The notes below the pieces were generated by a model. The model was not told the DNA's origin. It did not search any database and saw nothing but the letters and a program-made list of their open reading frames with translations. Source: an uncultured Candidatus Rokubacteria bacterium (GTDB lineage: Bacteria; Methylomirabilota; Methylomirabilia; Rokubacteriales; DASRDR01). Taken from it: 30,097 bases of DNA. Where the stretch lies: NCBI GenBank assembly GCA_963805625.1, contig CAWDVE010000026.1, positions 1-30,097 on the forward strand, in the 5' to 3' direction. Positions 1,016 to 30,038 of this stretch are shown here, piece after piece. The translations under genes were made by a program, and so were the position numbers. Every line of letters starts with the position of its first letter. The stretch's first letter is position 1.

Positions 1016-1047
1016 CGTCGCAATGTCGCGCCGGCGACAACCTGACG
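1016..1047. promoter_or_regulatory. Putative sigma54-activator enhancer (UAS), core TGTCG-N6-CGACA at 1024-1039
   Basis: CGTCG caa TGTCG cgccgg CGACA acc TGACG; 82 nt upstream of the -24/-12 motif at 1122. Confidence 0.75.
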
Positions 1048-3641: not shown

Positions 3642-3656
3642 GCAAGTCGCGTGCCG
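3642..3656 (-). promoter_or_regulatory. Sigma54 promoter
   Basis: Minus strand CGGCACGCGACTTGC. Confidence 0.8.
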
Positions 3657-3733: not shown

Positions 3734-3765
3734 CGTCACGGTGTCGCCGCGGCGACACCGTGACG
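3734..3765. promoter_or_regulatory. UAS; perfect 32-bp palindrome (core 3742-3757)
   Basis: CGTCA cgg TGTCG ccgcgg CGACA ccg TGACG; 85 nt upstream of the promoter at 3642-3656. Confidence 0.8.
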
Positions 3766-3791: not shown

Positions 3792-4000
3792 TCAGGCTGC
3801 GGGCCGGACGGCGCGCTCTTCCTGGAGCCGGGTCTCGACGATGGACCAGTCGATGTTCCGGAAGAACGCCTCAATGTACTGGTCGCGCTCGGTCGCCTTG
3901 TAATCCCGCATGAAGGCGTGCTCCCAGACGTCCATGACCAGGAGTGGCTTGAACCCCGCGGGCACGCCGTCCTGGTGGCGCGTGATCCAGTGATTCGAGG
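3792..4000 (-). pseudogene. Fe/Mn superoxide dismutase C-terminal remnant
   Basis: SNHWITRHQDGVPAGFKPLLVMDVWEHAFMRDY...YIEAFFRNIDW carries the DVWEHA signature; no N-terminal half or start codon. Confidence 0.8.
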
Positions 4001-4986: not shown

Positions 4987-5018
4987 CGCCACGCTGTCGT
5001 GGCGACGACACCATGGCG
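4987..5018. promoter_or_regulatory. UAS shared by divergent sigma54 promoters (core 4995-5010)
   Basis: CGCCA cgc TGTCG tggcga CGACA cca TGGCG. Confidence 0.75.
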
Positions 5019-5117: not shown

Positions 5118-5132
5118 TGGTACGGAAGTTGC
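5118..5132 (+). promoter_or_regulatory. Sigma54 promoter for the treZ operon
   Basis: TGGTACGGAAGTTGC. Confidence 0.7.
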
Positions 5133-16072: not shown

Positions 16073-16087
16073 GCAATCTCTGTGCCG
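16073..16087 (-). promoter_or_regulatory. Sigma54 promoter for the micro-protein / PBP / phosphatase operon
   Basis: Minus strand CGGCACAGAGATTGC. Confidence 0.8.
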
Positions 16088-16161: not shown

Positions 16162-16193
16162 CGCCATGGTGTCGCCGCCGCGACACCAGGACG
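16162..16193. promoter_or_regulatory. UAS between divergent promoters (core 16170-16185)
   Basis: CGCCA tgg TGTCG ccgccg CGACA cca GGACG. Confidence 0.75.
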
Positions 16194-18526: not shown

Positions 18527-18558
18527 GGCCACGATGTCGCGCCAGTGACACCCTGGCG
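18527..18558. promoter_or_regulatory. UAS with one core mismatch (core 18535-18550)
   Basis: GGCCA cga TGTCG cgccag TGACA ccc TGGCG. Confidence 0.65.
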
Positions 18559-20225: not shown

Positions 20226-20257
20226 CGTCATGCTGTCGGGCTCACGACATGGTGACA
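20226..20257. promoter_or_regulatory. UAS between divergent promoters (core 20234-20249)
   Basis: CGTCA tgc TGTCG ggctca CGACA tgg TGACA. Confidence 0.78.
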
Positions 20258-20321: not shown

Positions 20322-20336
20322 TGGCACACGGCTTGC
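20322..20336 (+). promoter_or_regulatory. Sigma54 promoter
   Basis: TGGCACACGGCTTGC, near consensus. Confidence 0.85.
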
Positions 20337-22626: not shown

Positions 22627-22658
22627 CGTCAGGCTGTCGAACGGACGACAAGGTGTCG
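22627..22658. promoter_or_regulatory. UAS (core 22635-22650)
   Basis: CGTCA ggc TGTCG aacgga CGACA agg TGTCG. Confidence 0.78.
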
Positions 22659-22736: not shown

Positions 22737-22751
22737 GGGCACAGAGCTTGC
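22737..22751 (+). promoter_or_regulatory. Sigma54 promoter
   Basis: GGGCACAGAGCTTGC; 86 nt downstream of the UAS. Confidence 0.78.
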
Positions 22752-23897: not shown

Positions 23898-24094
23898 CCT
23901 TCGTCGACGGAGGTCTCTCGAACACGGTGCGCCGTGAAGGACGCCTCACCCGCCGGGGGCTCTTCTTCGATCTGGTCGGAGGTGGCACGCTGGTGTTGAC
24001 ACTCGAGTCCGGCCGGCGACTCAGGGGGGAGTTCGCGGGCGGCCCGGACGTACCGGCCCGGCTCGGATCACTCGAGCTGACGCGAAGGAGCTGA
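23882..24094 (+). CDS. Hypothetical protein or gene fragment
   Basis: Protein-like beta-rich sequence 'GTLVLTLESGRRL'; no RBS; overlaps the convergent gene end. Confidence 0.3.
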   Translation: MLAQVTFVDGGLSNTVRREGRLTRRGLFFDLVGGGTLVLTLESGRRLRGEFAGGPDVPARLGSLELTRRS

Positions 24095-24868
24095 GCCCTG
24101 GGCGGCGGCGGGCTGCCCGTCCGACGCGGACGCGGCCGGCAGCTCGACGATCCGGATGGGTGGCTGCTCCGGATCGAGGTCGCGGAGCACTGGCAGGCAC
24201 ACATTGTACACCGGGACCCCGCCGCGCGTCCGGCCTTCCGCCTGGCCGCGATGCGCGTGGCCATGGAAGACGAGGCTCACCGGATACCGGTTCAGCGGCT
24301 CCTCGAGCCGGCTCGACCCCAGGAACGGGTACAGCTCGGGCGGCTCTCCCTCCACCGTGGCCTGTATCGGCGAGTAGTGCAGGAGCGCCACCCGCTGGGG
24401 CGTGCGGAGGCGGGCGAGGGCGGACTCGAGCTTGAGCGCTTCGTCCACCGCCTCCCGGACAAAGCGCTTCATGATGTCCTCTCCCCACGGCTGAAGCGCC
24501 CGTTCCCCGAAGCCGCCACCGAACCCCTTCACGCCCCCGATCCCGAGGCCCGCGACCTCGCACCCGTCTCCGTCAAGGATGACGATGCCGGCGTCCCGGA
24601 GGATCTGCACGACCTCCTCGTGCTGTCCCGACTCGTAGTCGTGGTTGCCGAGGACTCCGACCGCTGGGATGCGGAGCGCCGTGCCCAGCTCTCGCGCTAG
24701 AACCCGCGCCTCCTCCGGAAGCCCGTAGTCCGTGAGATCCCCGCACAGTAGCAGGACTTCGGCATTCGCACTCGCGGCGGCGAAGAGGGGCTGGAACGCC
24801 CCCTGCGACGTCTTCGTACAGTGCAGATCACCGACGGCGGCGACGCGCACGGGGAGCCGGACGTCCAT
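24068..24868 (-). CDS. Calcineurin-like metallophosphoesterase
   Basis: GDLH, CGDLTD, LGNHD, LLHYSP, HGHAH. Confidence 0.9.
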   Translation of the reverse strand: MDVRLPVRVAAVGDLHCTKTSQGAFQPLFAAASANAEVLLLCGDLTDYGLPEEARVLARELGTALRIPAVGVLGNHDYESGQHEEVVQILRDAGIVILDGDGCEVAGLGIGGVKGFGGGFGERALQPWGEDIMKRFVREAVDEALKLESALARLRTPQRVALLHYSPIQATVEGEPPELYPFLGSSRLEEPLNRYPVSLVFHGHAHRGQAEGRTRGGVPVYNVCLPVLRDLDPEQPPIRIVELPAASASDGQPAAAQGSAPSRQLE

Positions 24869-25766
24869 TCCGACGGATGACGGAGAGACCGGGGGGCGGA
24901 TCCGGCAGTGGAGACGCGGGACTCGTCGGGATCGCCGCCGTCCAGTGTGCCACCTCGGCCGCCGTCATCTCCCCGCGGGGTGTGAGGCGGCCGTCCGAAT
25001 ACCCGCGTCCGGTGACGTCGAACAGGTACTGCTGCCGGGAGAGCAAGGTCCCATCGCACACGCGGGCGTCCTGTGCCCCGACTCGCTCCCGGTCGAGCCG
25101 GTGCAGGAGATGGGCCATCACCGCGTCGGGGATGACGGCTCGCTCGCCCGGATAGATGAAGCCAAAGAGGACGAGGTGGCTCAAGAGCACGCGCCACCGC
25201 CCGCCGAAGCGCCACAGTAGCCGGCGCCAGTCCAGCTCCCCCCCGCAGGCCAGCATCAGGTGGGCGACGTCGGCACCGTCGTAACGTTCGCGCTCCATGA
25301 TGAAAGCCTTGGACCAGATCATCTCCTCGGGCGGGCAGAGCCGGACCGGGACACCGAGCACACGGCCGGGGGCGGCATGCGTGAACCAGAGGTCGTCGAC
25401 CATGGCAACGCCGTTGCCCGCGCCGAAGATGAGATCGATGAAGCGATCCCCGGCATACGCCTTGCCCAGCCAGTGCGGGAACGTGAGCTCGGTCGCGAAG
25501 CCGGCCTCACCAAGCACGGCGAGCGCCGACTCGCAGTCCTCCTTCCGGAGGAAGACGTCCAGGTCCTTCGTGTCCCGGACAATGCCGGTGTACGGGGCGA
25601 GAGCGTGAGCTCCACCGATCAGGAACTCCACGCCGCCCTGGCGGAGCGCTGCCAGCGCCTCGAGATACACACGCCGCGTTTCCTGGTCGAGGGCGGCATC
25701 GGACCCGGCCAAGGCCGCACCCTCCGGGGGGAAGCTCGCCGCGTTCACAGCGAGATTTCGCGGCAC
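24828..25766 (-). CDS. Uncharacterised nucleotidyltransferase-fold protein
   Basis: 'FLIGGAHA...RDTKDLDVF' (GG...DxD), 'HWLGKA', 'IDLIF', 'EEMIWSK..ERERYDGADVAHL'. Confidence 0.8.
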   Translation of the reverse strand: MPRNLAVNAASFPPEGAALAGSDAALDQETRRVYLEALAALRQGGVEFLIGGAHALAPYTGIVRDTKDLDVFLRKEDCESALAVLGEAGFATELTFPHWLGKAYAGDRFIDLIFGAGNGVAMVDDLWFTHAAPGRVLGVPVRLCPPEEMIWSKAFIMERERYDGADVAHLMLACGGELDWRRLLWRFGGRWRVLLSHLVLFGFIYPGERAVIPDAVMAHLLHRLDRERVGAQDARVCDGTLLSRQQYLFDVTGRGYSDGRLTPRGEMTAAEVAHWTAAIPTSPASPLPDPPPGLSVIRRNGRPAPRARRRRR

Positions 25767-25778
25767 GGGGCGTGCCTG

Positions 25779-26192
25779 TCAGCTCGCTCGGGGCTCGTCT
25801 CCTGACCGCGAGACGAGGCCATCGATGGCATCGCGGAGCTGCCCGAGTTTGAAGGGTTTCTCGAGATAGCTGGCCGCGCCGAGCCGCAGCGCGCTCGCCG
25901 CGACCTGACCGCCGCCGAACGCGGTCACGAGCACCACGGGCACCTGCGGAAACTCGCGATGCAGCACCGGCAGGAGGTCGAGACCAGTGAGCCCAGGCAT
26001 CTCCTTGTCCAGGATGATCAGATCGAACGGCGCCCCGCGGAGCGTCTCCACCACGCGCGTGCCACGATCCCGCTCCGTCACCTGGAATCCGTCGGCTTCG
26101 AGCGTTCTGCGCAGGAGAGCCCGCATCTCGTCGTCGTCATCGACGACGAGCACCCGCGCGGTCGGCCCCGGACGGTCGTCGGCCTCACGCAC
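25779..26192 (-). CDS. Single-domain response regulator (REC)
   Basis: VLVVDDD, ILDKEMPG, VTAFG, YLEKPF; GTG 26192 follows GGGAGG (alternative ATG 26228). Confidence 0.9.
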   Translation of the reverse strand: MREADDRPGPTARVLVVDDDDEMRALLRRTLEADGFQVTERDRGTRVVETLRGAPFDLIILDKEMPGLTGLDLLPVLHREFPQVPVVLVTAFGGGQVAASALRLGAASYLEKPFKLGQLRDAIDGLVSRSGDEPRAS

Positions 26193-26241
26193 GACTACCT
26201 CCCTTCTGCCGAACCAGGAGACTCCCATGCCACTGAATGTA

Positions 26242-26256
26242 GCAAAGCGCGTGCCA
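26242..26256 (-). promoter_or_regulatory. Sigma54 promoter (consensus) for REC / NTase / phosphoesterase
   Basis: Minus strand TGGCACGCGCTTTGC, just after the activator stop codon. Confidence 0.8.
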
Positions 26257-26258
26257 GA

Positions 26259-27626
26259 TCATGACGACTGCTGGTCCGTGAACCCTGGGCCCACGCGCAT
26301 CATGTTGGCCTGCATCCGCTGAAGTGTCCGTACGCTGATCCCGAGGATACGGGCCGCGGCCCGCTTGTCGCCTCGGACCTCGTCGAGGACGCGGCGGATG
26401 TACTGGCTCTCCACCTCGGCCAGGGATGGGCGCACCCCCAGCTCGCCGGTCGAGCCGGGGGTGAACTCGATCCGGAGGTCGTCCCGCGTGATGTGCCGGC
26501 CCTTGGCGAGGGTCGCCGCCCGCTCGACGACGTTCTCCAACTCGCGGACGTTCCCCGGCCAGTTGTGCTCGAGGAGCCACTTGAGTGCCTCCTCGTCAAA
26601 GCCTTCGATCTCCTTGCCCATCCCGGCCGCCGCCCGCTTCAGGAAGTGCTCGGCGAGAAGCGGGATGTCCTCCGGCCGTTCCTTGAGGCTGGGGATCCGG
26701 ATGGGGATGACGGCCAGACGGTAGTAGAGGTCCTCCCGGAACTTCCCCTGCCGCACGAAGGCCGGCAGATCCCGGTTGGTCGCGCTGATGAGACGCAGAT
26801 CCACCTTGATCTCCTCGTTGCCGCCCACAGGCCGGACGACGCGGTCCTGGAGGGCACGGAGCAGTTTGACCTGCAGTGACTGGGGCATCTCGGCGATCTC
26901 ATCGAGAAGGAGGGTGCCACCCTGGGCCTCAACGAAGAGGCCCCGCCGCTTCCGGTCAGCGCCGGTGAAGGCTCCCCTCTCGTGGCCAAACAGCTCGGAT
27001 TCCAGCAGGGTCTCAGGAATGGCCGCACAGTTGACGGCGACGAACCGACCCTCGCGCCGGCCGCTGTGCCAGTGGATCGCCCGCGACACGAGCTCCTTGC
27101 CCGAGCCGCTGTCGCCCAGGAGCAGGACCGGAGCATCGGTGTCCGCCACCACCCGGATCTGCTCGAACACGGCCTCCATCGCCTTCGACCGGCCGAGGAT
27201 ATTGTCGAAGCTGTAGCGGCGCTCGACCTCGGCCCGGAGCCGACGGTTTTCCTCCCGGATCTGCTGGTCCTCCACGGCCCGCTTGACGACCAGCGACAGC
27301 TCCGGAAGCTTGAAGGGCTTGGTCAGGTAGTCGTACGCGCCCTGACGCATGGCATCGATCGCGCTCTCGAGGCTCCCGAACGCGGTCATGAGGATCACGC
27401 GCGCCCGTGGCTGGACGCGCTGGGCCTCTCGAAGCACGGCCAGGCCGTCCACCGGCTCCATGACGAGGTCAGTCAGGACGACCGCGTACTCCTCGCGCCC
27501 GAGCGCGGTCTGGGCGTCCTCCCCTCCCGTCACGGCCGTCACCGCCCAGCCTTCCACCTCCAGATGACGCCTGAGAAGCGCCACCATATCGGGATCGTTG
27601 TCCACCACGAGGATTCGGGGCTTCAT
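26259..27626 (-). CDS. Sigma54-dependent response regulator (NtrC/AtoC/ZraR family: REC-AAA+-Fis HTH)
   Basis: GDSGSGKE, ESELFGH, GAFTGA, LLLDEI, FREDLYYRL, WPGNVRELEN, HTH 'AARILGISVRTLQR'. Confidence 0.95.
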   Translation of the reverse strand: MKPRILVVDNDPDMVALLRRHLEVEGWAVTAVTGGEDAQTALGREEYAVVLTDLVMEPVDGLAVLREAQRVQPRARVILMTAFGSLESAIDAMRQGAYDYLTKPFKLPELSLVVKRAVEDQQIREENRRLRAEVERRYSFDNILGRSKAMEAVFEQIRVVADTDAPVLLLGDSGSGKELVSRAIHWHSGRREGRFVAVNCAAIPETLLESELFGHERGAFTGADRKRRGLFVEAQGGTLLLDEIAEMPQSLQVKLLRALQDRVVRPVGGNEEIKVDLRLISATNRDLPAFVRQGKFREDLYYRLAVIPIRIPSLKERPEDIPLLAEHFLKRAAAGMGKEIEGFDEEALKWLLEHNWPGNVRELENVVERAATLAKGRHITRDDLRIEFTPGSTGELGVRPSLAEVESQYIRRVLDEVRGDKRAAARILGISVRTLQRMQANMMRVGPGFTDQQSS

Positions 27627-29101
27627 GACTGCTCCTTCCTGTCTTCAGGCCCGGCCTCTGGAAGCCAGACGGTGAAGGTGGTGCCCTCGCCGGGCGTGCT
27701 CGCCACGTGGATCTCGCTTCCATTTGACCTCACGAGGTCCCGACAGATGGCGAGGCCGAGACCGGCCCCTTCGCGAGCGGGCTTGGTGCTGAAGAAGGGA
27801 TCGAAGATCCGGGGTAGGACGTTCTCCGGGATCCCTGCGCCCGTGTCCCGCACCGTGATGACAACGCCGGGCCGACCTTCGTCGGCCCGGCGGGCACCCT
27901 TGACCTCGACCCGCCCCCCCGCCGGAGTCGCTTCGATGGCGTTCGTCAGGAGGTTGATCAGGACCTGCTGGAGGTGCCCGGGGTCGACGCACACCTGCGG
28001 AAGGGCCGGCGGGATCGAGACCGCGAGGGTCACGCCGCGACCCTTGGCGAAGTGCTGGAGAAGCGGCCGCAGCGCGTCCGTGACCGACGCGGGCGCGACA
28101 GCCGCTCGCTCGGGCTCTCGCTGGCGGAAGGGATCCAGGGCCGCACGGATCATCCGGGAGATCCGGTCGATCTGGGTGATGATGACGTTGAGGTCTTCGC
28201 GGAGCGGCGAGTCCGTTGGCAGCGCGCGGAGTGTCAGCTCGGCGCGCCCGGCGATGATGTTGAGCGGCGTCCCCACCTCGTGGGCCATGCTCGAGCAGAG
28301 CTTGCCGGCGATCGCGAGCGACTCGGTCTGTCGTAGCCGGCGCATGAGCTCGAGCGACCGGTCCGTCTCGGTCTCCGCCCGCCCGCGAGCGTCCTCCAGC
28401 CGTTCTGTCATCCGGTTGAAGGCCGCCGCCACCTTCCCCAGCTCGTCGCGGCTCCGGACCGGGACGGGCGCGCGGGACTCGCCGGCCGCGACACGCTCGA
28501 TGCCCTGCATCAGGTCGGCGACCGGCCGGAACACGAGGCGCTGCAGGGCCACCCAGACAACGAGGCCCAGCAAGAGGACGAGGACACCGCCCCGCAGCGC
28601 GATCTTGTAGCTCTCGCCCAGAAGTTCGGCCTCCAGGCGGCCCGCGATGAAGGCGATCTCGAGCACCCCTTCGTCGTTCCCGGAGGACCGGACCGGGAGC
28701 AGCATCGTGTGGAGCCGGATGCCGCCACTCTGGTGCTCCACGACCGCAGGCTGGCCCGTGTCCCGGACCTGGCGATGTCGATCGAGGGGCACGCCGGGGT
28801 CGCCGGTGAGAAGGTTCGCGTCGACGCGTGGCGAAAGGCTCCGGTCGAGCAATCGGATCCGGACGATCTCGGTTTGCTTTACGACCAGATCACGGGCCAG
28901 ACGCTCCACGTCGACCGGCGTGCCGCTGCGAAGCGCGTTCTCCACCGCGAGTCGGATCGCCGCGCTCGTGACGCTCACGCGCAGGTCGAACTCCGCCCGC
29001 CGCTGGGCGCGCTCATCCTGGACTAGAACGTATGCGAAGAGGGCGACGACCAGCACCATCGGCACGAGGAGGAGTAGGAACAGGCGAAGTCTCAGCCCCA
29101 C
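27623..29101 (-). CDS. Membrane sensor histidine kinase (2 TM, extracytoplasmic sensor, HAMP, HisKA, HATPase)
   Basis: HAMP 'RDELGKVAAAFNRM'; H-box AHEVGTPLN; N-box QVLINLLTNA; DTGAG, FDPFFSTK, GAGLGL; ATGA overlap with the regulator. Confidence 0.95.
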   Translation of the reverse strand: MGLRLRLFLLLLVPMVLVVALFAYVLVQDERAQRRAEFDLRVSVTSAAIRLAVENALRSGTPVDVERLARDLVVKQTEIVRIRLLDRSLSPRVDANLLTGDPGVPLDRHRQVRDTGQPAVVEHQSGGIRLHTMLLPVRSSGNDEGVLEIAFIAGRLEAELLGESYKIALRGGVLVLLLGLVVWVALQRLVFRPVADLMQGIERVAAGESRAPVPVRSRDELGKVAAAFNRMTERLEDARGRAETETDRSLELMRRLRQTESLAIAGKLCSSMAHEVGTPLNIIAGRAELTLRALPTDSPLREDLNVIITQIDRISRMIRAALDPFRQREPERAAVAPASVTDALRPLLQHFAKGRGVTLAVSIPPALPQVCVDPGHLQQVLINLLTNAIEATPAGGRVEVKGARRADEGRPGVVITVRDTGAGIPENVLPRIFDPFFSTKPAREGAGLGLAICRDLVRSNGSEIHVASTPGEGTTFTVWLPEAGPEDRKEQS

Positions 29102-29121
29102 GGGGGCCTCAGTTTAGCACG

Positions 29122-29164
29122 CGTCCGACGCGCGACAGCCCGGCGTGCGGGCGACAGGGTGGCG
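29122..29164. promoter_or_regulatory. Degenerate tandem UAS between the kinase gene and the divergent sigma54 promoter
   Basis: CGTCC gacgcg CGACA gcc CGGCG tgcggg CGACA ggg TGGCG; 82 nt from the promoter at 29239. Confidence 0.55.
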
Positions 29165-29238: not shown

Positions 29239-29253
29239 TGGCACGTGCCTTGC
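29239..29253 (+). promoter_or_regulatory. Sigma54 promoter (consensus)
   Basis: TGGCACGTGCCTTGC. Confidence 0.85.
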
Positions 29254-29417
29254 TCCGCTCGCCCACTCAGAAGGTGCGGATCGATCCAGTGCCAGGGAGA
29301 ACGAAGCGCATGAACCGCAGCATCGCCTGTAGCGGGGAAGAGGGCGGCGAACGTTGACGACGCAGCCAGCCTCGCTCGTTCGATCGACCGAACGCGCGAG
29401 TACGGACGGAGCAGAAT

Positions 29418-29729
29418 ATGAAGAGTCGGTCCATCCTGGAAGGGCTCCTGATGTCGCTCCTGCTCCTGGGCGGCTGCTACATGCCGCCCAGGACGATGCA
29501 GGCCCCGCCACCGCCGCCCGCGGCTCCCGTGGAAGCGGTGCCGGCGCAGCCCGGCCCGAGCTACGTCTGGGTCCCCGGGTCCTACACGTGGCAGCCGGCC
29601 AGCCGGACGTACGTCTGGGTGCCGGGACATTGGACCATCCCCCCACAGGGCTTCGTCTGGGTGCCGGGCCACTGGGAGACACAGGCGACTGGCTCGGTGT
29701 GGGTCGATGGGCAGTGGCGTCACAACTGA
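29418..29729 (+). CDS. YXWGXW-repeat lipoprotein
   Basis: Lipobox LGGC; Pro linker; YVWVPGSY, YVWVPGHW, FVWVPGHW, VWVDGQW. Confidence 0.88.
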   Translation: MKSRSILEGLLMSLLLLGGCYMPPRTMQAPPPPPAAPVEAVPAQPGPSYVWVPGSYTWQPASRTYVWVPGHWTIPPQGFVWVPGHWETQATGSVWVDGQWRHN

Positions 29730-29808
29730 CGGCAGGGGTGCACGGTCCATGCCGCCGGGTCGCGTGATGCCCTCCGCCGGTGCGGGGACACCCTGTCCAC
29801 CCTGCCCC

Positions 29809-29940
29809 GTGACAACCCCGACGCCTAGCCAGCCGGCGAAGGGCTCCGAGGTCCAAATGGTTCGGTGTAAGGCGCACGGTATCGCGTACGACAGCGAGAG
29901 GGAGGTGTGTCCAGAGTGCGCCAAGGGGCCATCCGCTTGA
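29809..29940 (+). CDS. Small CxxH...CxxC zinc-finger-like protein
   Basis: ...MVRCKAHGIAYDSEREVCPECAKG*; start uncertain. Confidence 0.55.
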   Translation: MTTPTPSQPAKGSEVQMVRCKAHGIAYDSEREVCPECAKGPSA

Positions 29941-30006: not shown

Positions 30007-30038
30007 CGTCAGGATGTCGCCCACGCGACATGATGTCG
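30007..30038. promoter_or_regulatory. UAS (core 30015-30030); target promoter predicted beyond the window end
   Basis: CGTCA gga TGTCG cccacg CGACA tga TGTCG. Confidence 0.72.

Follow-up and report, generated by a model that had tools for sequence, protein, structure and literature searches.

The stretch analysed here (hereafter the window) comprises 30,097 nucleotides of contig CAWDVE010000026.1 from an uncultured Candidatus Rokubacteria bacterium (assembly GCA_963805625.1), and corresponds to contig C26 of the genome that we denote G000. Near one end it encodes a sensor histidine kinase and an NtrC-family sigma-54 activator, i.e. a bacterial enhancer-binding protein (bEBP), and its intergenic regions repeatedly carry a 32-bp palindrome of four short boxes that we regard as the candidate upstream activating sequence (UAS) of this pair. 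The two genes have the following features:

27623..29101, minus strand: sensor histidine kinase of 492 amino acids with HAMP, HisKA and HATPase_c domains
26259..27626, minus strand: NtrC-family sigma-54 activator of 455 amino acids with Response_reg, Sigma54_activat, AAA lid and HTH_8 domains
27623..27626, minus strand: ATGA start/stop overlap in the sequence, a signature of translational coupling
26316..26336, minus strand: codons of the recognition helix SVRTLQR (residues 431–437 of the activator) in the helix-turn-helix (HTH)

The kinase consists of a first transmembrane segment, a periplasmic domain (about residues 30–165), a second transmembrane segment and the HAMP, HisKA (with H274) and HATPase_c domains, and its N, G1, F and G2 boxes are present. 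The receiver of the activator contains D53 (the phospho-acceptor), T81 and K103, while its AAA+ domain contains a Walker A motif at residue 171, GAFTGA at 218, Walker B at 240, an arginine finger (REDLYYRL) and sensor II. All catalytic motifs of both proteins are intact, and the activator ATG (27626–27624) overlaps the kinase TGA (27625–27623); the translationally coupled kinase and receiver–AAA+(GAFTGA)–HTH activator described in an earlier note on this DNA are thereby borne out. The activator has the features of an NtrC-like group I bEBP, i.e. a GAFTGA-bearing AAA+ domain, a receiver with the Asp, Thr and Lys residues, an adjacent cognate kinase and a host with sigma-54. The best NCBIfam matches are AtoC, NtrC, ZraR and GlrR for the activator, and AtoS and ZraS for the kinase. 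However, each protein scores below the cut-off of all 25 NCBIfam equivalogs listed (e.g. AtoC 455 versus 714 and ZraR 403 versus 760), the NtrC, ZraR, AtoC, GlrR and NtrX equivalogs among them. Judged by these scores, the pair is a group I bEBP system that belongs to no named equivalog. The activator also has a genus-specific C-terminal extension (MQA[N/S]M..RVGPG; 26259–26310, minus strand), which is missing from most distant orthologues.

The palindrome TGTCG-N6-CGACA, proposed as the UAS in the earlier note, occurs as eight exact copies in the window and never with any other spacer of 0–15 bp; G000 as a whole contains 24 exact copies. The bases flanking these cores are conserved at fixed offsets, so that the core stands but the true element is longer: it spans 32 bp, CGHCA-N3-TGTCG-N6-CGACA-N3-TGDCG, and consists of two 13-bp inverted repeats separated by 6 bp. 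A three-dimer array (16-bp core repeats with a period of 19) was ruled out since there is no conservation beyond 32 bp. A scan for the 16-bp palindrome with up to two mismatches stayed at chance level (31 matches versus 25.0 ± 5.4 expected), and we therefore adopted a 32-bp matrix trained on G000. In the window, it detects the following sites, given together with their sigma-54 promoters:

1016..1047, no strand assigned: four-box UAS, 29.5 bits, with a sigma-54 promoter at 1122 (plus strand, glycine-zipper protein)
3734..3765, no strand assigned: four-box UAS, 33.2 bits, with a sigma-54 promoter at 3656 (minus strand)
4987..5018, no strand assigned: four-box UAS, 29.0 bits, between sigma-54 promoters at 5118 (plus strand, TreZ/GDE operon) and 4877 (minus strand, PRC-BON gene)
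16162..16193, no strand assigned: four-box UAS, 24.9 bits, with a sigma-54 promoter at 16087 (minus strand)
18527..18558, no strand assigned: four-box UAS, 24.1 bits, upstream of CsbD and BON genes
20226..20257, no strand assigned: four-box UAS, 30.5 bits, between divergent sigma-54 promoters at 20322 (plus strand) and 20150 (minus strand)
22627..22658, no strand assigned: four-box UAS, 33.4 bits, with a sigma-54-like promoter at 22737 (plus strand)
29133..29164, no strand assigned: four-box UAS, 24.5 bits, common to a divergent sigma-54 promoter and the kinase promoter region
29239..29254, plus strand: sigma-54 −24/−12 promoter TGGCACGTGCCTTGCT, 90 bp from the centre of the UAS at 29133–29164
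30007..30038, no strand assigned: four-box UAS, strong matrix match, 33.4 bits

Genome-wide, the matrix finds 56 sites in G000 at ≥18 bits, compared with none in the reversed genome and with 13 and 4 for control matrices whose central spacer is 5 or 7 bp. At ≥20 bits there are 50 sites, 48 of them intergenic, in a genome of which ∼82% is coding. The sites are spread over seven contigs. Window contig C26 has a near-duplicate at 643–674 kb (643124–674294) of contig C17 in the same genome, with an identity of 99% at the ends and 87–97% in the middle. This duplication is probably a strain bubble (genome contamination is 6.26%), and duplicate sites were therefore taken out before promoters were counted. 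A strict sigma-54 box lies 45–160 bp away from 22 of the 41 non-duplicate intergenic sites but from only 2.1% of random intergenic points, a 25-fold enrichment, and with a looser sigma-54 matrix 25 of 42 sites exceed the 95th background percentile. Conversely, 24 of the 117 strict intergenic sigma-54 boxes in G000 (duplicates included) have a site upstream. No integration host factor consensus was found between UAS and −24 elements.

We then asked which activator reads the motif, since G000 encodes 39 bEBP-like open reading frames (ORFs) besides one rpoN. Only the local activator (two copies) has 5–6 sites inside 10 kb; one other bEBP has one and 36 have none. With the G000-trained matrix, a site is present in 24 of 30 orthologous kinase loci, in 1 of 10 paralogous loci and in 0 of 41 non-orthologous NtrC-family loci. 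In 7 of 16 loci outside the genus, and likewise in genome G017, the site begins 10–54 bp past the activator stop. In a further genome (G018, locus L105), a site with a 7-bp central spacer follows the activator stop, and a sigma-54 box comes next. The S-x-R-T-L-Q-R helix is invariant in 26/26 orthologues, while the receiver domain averages 75% conservation. A motif-first scan of metagenomes yielded at least 121 loci, many of them short; among the matches listed, all 15 Fis-type helices matched by pattern are S[VI]RTLQR.

The exact 16-bp core proved too noisy as a co-occurrence marker outside the genus (N6 in 54/61 genomes, N7 control in 59/61), and co-occurrence was scored by a three-box pattern. 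Among the first 60 relatives, the pattern is present in 25/28 activator-positive versus 4/32 activator-negative genomes. In 117 further genomes it is present in 21/24 versus 5/93, all five being single matches; a reversed-pattern control matched 9 of these 117. Over the 170-genome set of the phylum, a match is found in 44 of 49 activator-positive versus 7 of 121 activator-negative genomes, each of the seven with a single match. In genera that contain both kinds of genome, 11 of 12 agree and one is a tie; this within-genus contrast is the fairer figure, given the kinship of the genomes and the linkage of some sites to the gene. None of 46 genomes from other orders yielded the activator, whose closest matches (89–97% identity) carry mostly Rokubacteria or Methylomirabilota titles; a search of representative proteins for its range returned mostly fragments and one Methylomirabilota match. 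Outside the phylum, the three-box pattern matched 0/5 single genomes and 0/151 genomes of one other phylum, a sample too small to establish absence. Two genomes have unusual gene content: G039 contains a second, broken activator copy ∼3.5 kb downstream of the intact one (L083:4289–4426), and G019 (L079) has kept the kinase, while neither the activator nor a three-box match was found there.

Neighbourhood, co-occurrence, the invariant helix and the profile of a competing bEBP (see below) all point to the local activator as the reader of the palindrome, as the earlier note had proposed. The note had stated that persistence of the motif in relatives without the pair would refute this; the motif does not generally persist in relatives that lack the activator, apart from the single matches above and the exception of genome G007. 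These sequence comparisons make it likely that the activator binds the 32-bp palindrome, and it is predicted to switch on sigma-54 promoters at some 20–40 loci of general-stress type.

The site in front of the kinase gene was compared in 11 aligned genus members. On the minus strand its boxes read CGCCA-N3-TGTCG-N6-CGCCG-N3-TGTCG, and the outer-side boxes CGCCA and TGTCG are invariant in 11/11. In 10 of the 11 genus relatives, the matrix detects a ≥18-bit site between −60 and −68 relative to the kinase start. Within an otherwise diverged spacer, three blocks are conserved in all 11 members, i.e. the divergent −24/−12 box, the UAS and a TG-n-TAnACT hexamer 9–10 nt ahead of the kinase GTG. The earlier note had placed a degenerate tandem UAS before the kinase; its two-mismatch matches at 29122 and 29141 do not by themselves exceed the chance expectation, and what stands is the four-box site at 29133–29164. 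Its proposal that the divergent promoter at 29239 is activated fares well, in that both the UAS and the promoter are conserved in 11/11, and activation of this promoter is predicted. The elements around the two divergent transcripts and at the end of the operon are:

29111..29119, minus strand: predicted sigma-70 extended −10 (TG-C-TAAACT) of the kinase–activator operon, with TG, TA and ACT invariant in 11/11
29418..29729, plus strand: first divergent target, a predicted lipoprotein (LLGGC) with WXXGXW repeats (Pfam PF12779)
26242..26256, minus strand: second sigma-54 promoter, directly after the activator stop and facing the receiver gene, present in 9/9 listed genus relatives with a complete activator
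25779..26228, minus strand: single-domain receiver protein (Pfam), with its start at 26228 or 26192

The −35 position of the predicted operon promoter (29134–29139) overlaps the proximal UAS box, so that bound activator would hinder transcription of its own operon. The third box of this self-site is imperfect in all 11 aligned members, a feature that would fit a site filled only when the activator is abundant. A UAS that overlaps the regulator's own sigma-70 promoter leads to autorepression for XylR, PspF and NtrC. On the basis of this arrangement, we consider the chances of autorepression of the kinase–activator operon to be about even. The modulation of its own operon suggested in the earlier note is supported within this genus only, where it would probably be repressive. 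In many orthologues, the predicted −10 is just 6–12 nt before the kinase start (29101 in the window; also L066, L072 and L082), which suggests leaderless or near-leaderless mRNAs.

On the divergent side, the same promoter precedes a homologue of the WXXGXW lipoprotein gene in 8 of 11 genus relatives. The end of this gene is overlapped by a small ORF (29707–29940, plus strand, 77 amino acids) with the Cys pairs CPPCP ... CPEC, which may encode a small metal-binding protein; several genus relatives have similar ORFs behind this gene. At the other end of the operon, the single-domain receiver is the most conserved regulon target, and in ten distant genomes its homologue is the first downstream of the UAS. 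Its sigma-54 promoter is kept across the genus without a local UAS (the best score in the activator 3′ end is 0.4 bits, and no site lies within several hundred bp), whereas distant relatives have a UAS exactly there. Behind the receiver, a nucleotidyltransferase-like gene and a calcineurin-like phosphoesterase gene (24068–25766, minus strand) complete one apparent operon.

Targets were assigned by proximity, with a domain scan of 74 of the 118 called genes near sites and of the window genes. Genes beside sites include those for CsbD, BON and PRC proteins, LigD, topoisomerase IB, hemerythrin, CBS proteins, TreZ (over cut-off), a debranching enzyme, a GH15 trehalase, a TreS-like protein (below cut-off), a PLD-family synthase, YihY, glycine-zipper lipoproteins and MlaC. 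A gas-vesicle cluster (G000:C17:624749–633488, locus L123) lies downstream of a 29-bit UAS at 634179, and contains GvpA/J, K, L/F and G genes, an ArsA-type ATPase gene and its own kinase and receiver genes. BON/PRC and trehalose genes are typical of general stress regulons, and MrrA is reportedly a single-domain receiver in a general stress network. None of the 11 sigma factors scanned (out of 13 in G000) exceeds the cut-off of the RpoS, SigB or EcfG equivalogs; a group-2 sigma factor scores 291 against the RpoS cut-off of 379, and several ECF factors are present too. Site-bearing promoters are of the sigma-54 type rather than served by a dedicated sigma-70-family factor. A general-stress role of the regulon is, in our estimation, somewhat favoured. 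The earlier note's candidate master switch is appropriate for the four-box regulon but not for all stress genes. The RNA search returned one run at 0.05 word share, which gave only short fragments from relatives.

Several observations weigh against parts of this interpretation. A strict sigma-54 box inside 160 bp is missing at 19 of the 41 sites; the co-occurrence is partly physical linkage among kin that are not independent; genome G007 (71% complete) has seven matches, yet the activator was not found in it; and 5 of the 49 activator-positive genomes are without an exact match. Outside the genus, a ≥18-bit site lies within 130 bp of the kinase start in only 2 of 19 orthologous loci, and a self-site overlapping the −35 is seen in genus g1 only. 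In G000, no site was found in the 3 kb upstream of two Ku genes, two OtsA genes and five BON genes. The central 16 bp of the element, TGTCG-N6-CGACA, match exactly the consensus UAS of NifA, given as TGT-N10-ACA in PMC4999443, and in other organisms, loci that carry the four-box motif encode next to it a NifA-like activator (L193) or a GAF-type bEBP (L182 and L197). Thus, the motif alone does not identify its reader. A further possibility is that another bEBP of G000 reads the motif while the local pair merely travels with the same stress island. The number of bEBP-like ORFs, the NifA-type core and the other bEBPs flanking the motif speak for this, and just one of the ∼37 other bEBPs was profiled across genomes. 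We nevertheless consider it unlikely. For the bEBP with the most similar helix (SSRTLYRR; C10:748636–750024), look-alikes exist in 103 of the 170 genomes, most of which lack the motif, and none was found in the motif-rich G004, G057 and G039; a paralogue clade with the helix GIDRRTLYR is present in genomes with no three-box match (G028, G052 and G056). NifA itself has a GAF input where the activator has a receiver, a TPRQ-type helix where the activator has SVRTLQR, and a site without the two extra outer boxes of the Rokubacteria element; the activator scores 361 against the NifA equivalog cut-off of 529, no nitrogenase was found in G000, and no NifA-type helix occurs among the 39 C-termini. 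Moreover, the site tracks the pair through differing gene neighbourhoods and is spread over seven contigs. It is next to inconceivable that the palindrome is chance or repeat-type sequence of high-GC DNA with no regulatory role. Such a view could draw on the chance-level two-mismatch matches and on the presence of these boxes as tandem arrays on unrelated metagenome contigs of low GC content (L169, L202 and L153), but it conflicts with the exact spacer specificity, the intergenic position of 48/50 sites, the 25-fold enrichment of sigma-54 boxes and the footprint-like conservation inside an otherwise diverged spacer. On the metagenome contigs L182 and L197, the activators directly beside a perfect four-box motif are of GAF–AAA+–HTH type with the helix LTRAQLYTR, and are possibly a second family that reads the same site.

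If the activator reads the motif, the extent of what it controls can still be construed differently. The site at 29133–29164 may serve only the divergent sigma-54 promoter, with a constitutive kinase operon that is not autoregulated, which we regard as having slightly under an even chance. Outside the genus, most orthologues lack a UAS at the kinase start and have sigma-70-like −35/−10 elements, part of the TA-ACT-GAGG block could represent a ribosome-binding site, and short divergent intergenic regions force such overlaps. However, in 10 of 11 genus members the proximal box is separated by 15–16 nt from the TA(G/A/C)ACT hexamer (13 nt in G004), and it covers the −35 position. It is also possible, with roughly one chance in three by our judgement, that the regulon is a narrower one for envelope or osmotic/desiccation stress (lipoproteins, MlaC, cardiolipin synthase, PBP and trehalose), and that the true general stress response runs through the group-2 or an ECF sigma factor. 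This concerns physiology and is compatible with the proposed mechanism. The narrower reading draws on the periplasmic, WalK-like sensor, on the many targets that are exported or related to lipids, on the lack of a site at the Ku and OtsA genes, on the presence of the group-2 and ECF factors, and on the small number of exact matches in distant relatives (1–10). The general-stress role is instead favoured by the cytoplasmic stress markers that are also targets (CsbD, LigD, topoisomerase IB, TreZ, GH15 trehalase, hemerythrin, CBS proteins and gas vesicles), and by the direct membership of csbD, ku-ligD and envelope genes in the EcfG general stress regulon according to PMC7083833.

Compared with known systems, the pair resembles ZraSR/HydHG, AtoSC and GlrKR (QseEF) in combining a HAMP/HisKA/HATPase membrane kinase with a receiver–AAA+(GAFTGA)–HTH_8 activator and in having a palindromic UAS about 90–130 bp from a −24/−12 promoter. 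It differs from ZraSR, AtoSC and GlrKR in that its regulon has tens of loci rather than one or two. The GlrR site, TGTC-N10-GACA (PMC3045617), is 2 bp longer than the TGTCG-N6-CGACA core. The nearest functional precedent is Nla28 of Myxococcus xanthus, an autoregulated bEBP pair tied to general stress. [quoted passage not shown] By contrast, the Rokubacteria site is a palindrome of fixed spacing and its targets are stress effector genes. The general stress systems EcfG–NepR–PhyR (Alphaproteobacteria), SigB and RpoS have overlapping output genes (csbD, ligD and envelope proteins; PMC7083833), but they use an alternative sigma factor of the sigma-70 family, whereas the Rokubacteria promoters are of the sigma-54 type and would need an ATP-driven activator. 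The closest solved natural HTH is that of an Aquifex aeolicus NtrC-family DNA-binding domain (PDB 4L5E and 4L4U; PLRTLYRR versus SVRTLQR), with a sequence identity so low that DNA specificity is not transferable. Literature searches, which covered neither supplements nor subscription papers, returned no description of the motif, the pair or a Rokubacteria regulon; the accessible text of PMC4641369 contains no TGTC/GACA motif, and that of PMC12316311 does not mention the phylum or general stress.

The structure prediction of the sensor domain suggested in the earlier note gave a single-Cache/PAS-like fold: in the model (pLDDT 78), the periplasmic part of the kinase is a long N-terminal helix and a five-stranded PAS-like sheet between the two transmembrane helices. 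Its best fold matches are WalK and the extracellular domain of WalK (E 6e-6, TM 0.68 on the target), and its top matches in a structure atlas are sCache_3_2 and sCache-type clusters. A Pfam scan of the kinase gave no Cache match, and a homologue search with the N-terminal 250 amino acids returned close relatives only and no characterised protein. The modelled sensor matches a WalK-like single Cache/PDC-PAS fold. The closest solved fold is the WalK extracellular PAS domain (PDB 4YWZ and 5IS1), whose identity of merely 15–20% makes the ligand not transferable.

Taken together, we propose the following mechanism. A small ligand or envelope cue would be read by the periplasmic single-Cache domain, and H274 would pass phosphate to D53. 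Two activator dimers would then occupy the two 13-bp inverted repeats, which are 19 bp apart, and seed assembly of the AAA+ ring, whose GAFTGA loop would open closed complexes of sigma-54, among them that at 29239. The single-domain receiver, itself co-regulated, would serve as a phosphate sink. Feedback is a weaker element of this scheme: in this genus, activator bound over the −35 position may damp its own synthesis. We tentatively suggest that the general stress response of Rokubacteriales operates through sigma-54 and one ATP-driven bEBP, with a four-box enhancer that pre-positions two dimers, a co-induced single-domain receiver as sink and a regulon that in one soil genus has grown to ∼40 loci from only a few. 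If true, this would be a fourth general-stress architecture beside RpoS, SigB and EcfG–PhyR, in which a familiar general-stress gene set is wired to a sigma-54 enhancer system. In that case, the motif could mark many hypothetical proteins for annotation as stress genes, and help to read soil metatranscriptomes under drought or starvation. Rokubacteria are common in soil and, to our knowledge, have no cultured representatives; our results supply a regulator, its precise predicted binding site and a list of targets, all of which are open to tests in Escherichia coli without culturing the host.

The two copies of the duplicated region in G000 differ in how some genes are called. Only a C-terminal fragment of an Fe/Mn superoxide dismutase is called in the window (3792–3965, minus strand), and the C17 copy has a 215-amino-acid gene. 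The genes for TreZ, the debranching enzyme and AI-2E are each complete in the window and are called in pieces in the C17 copy.

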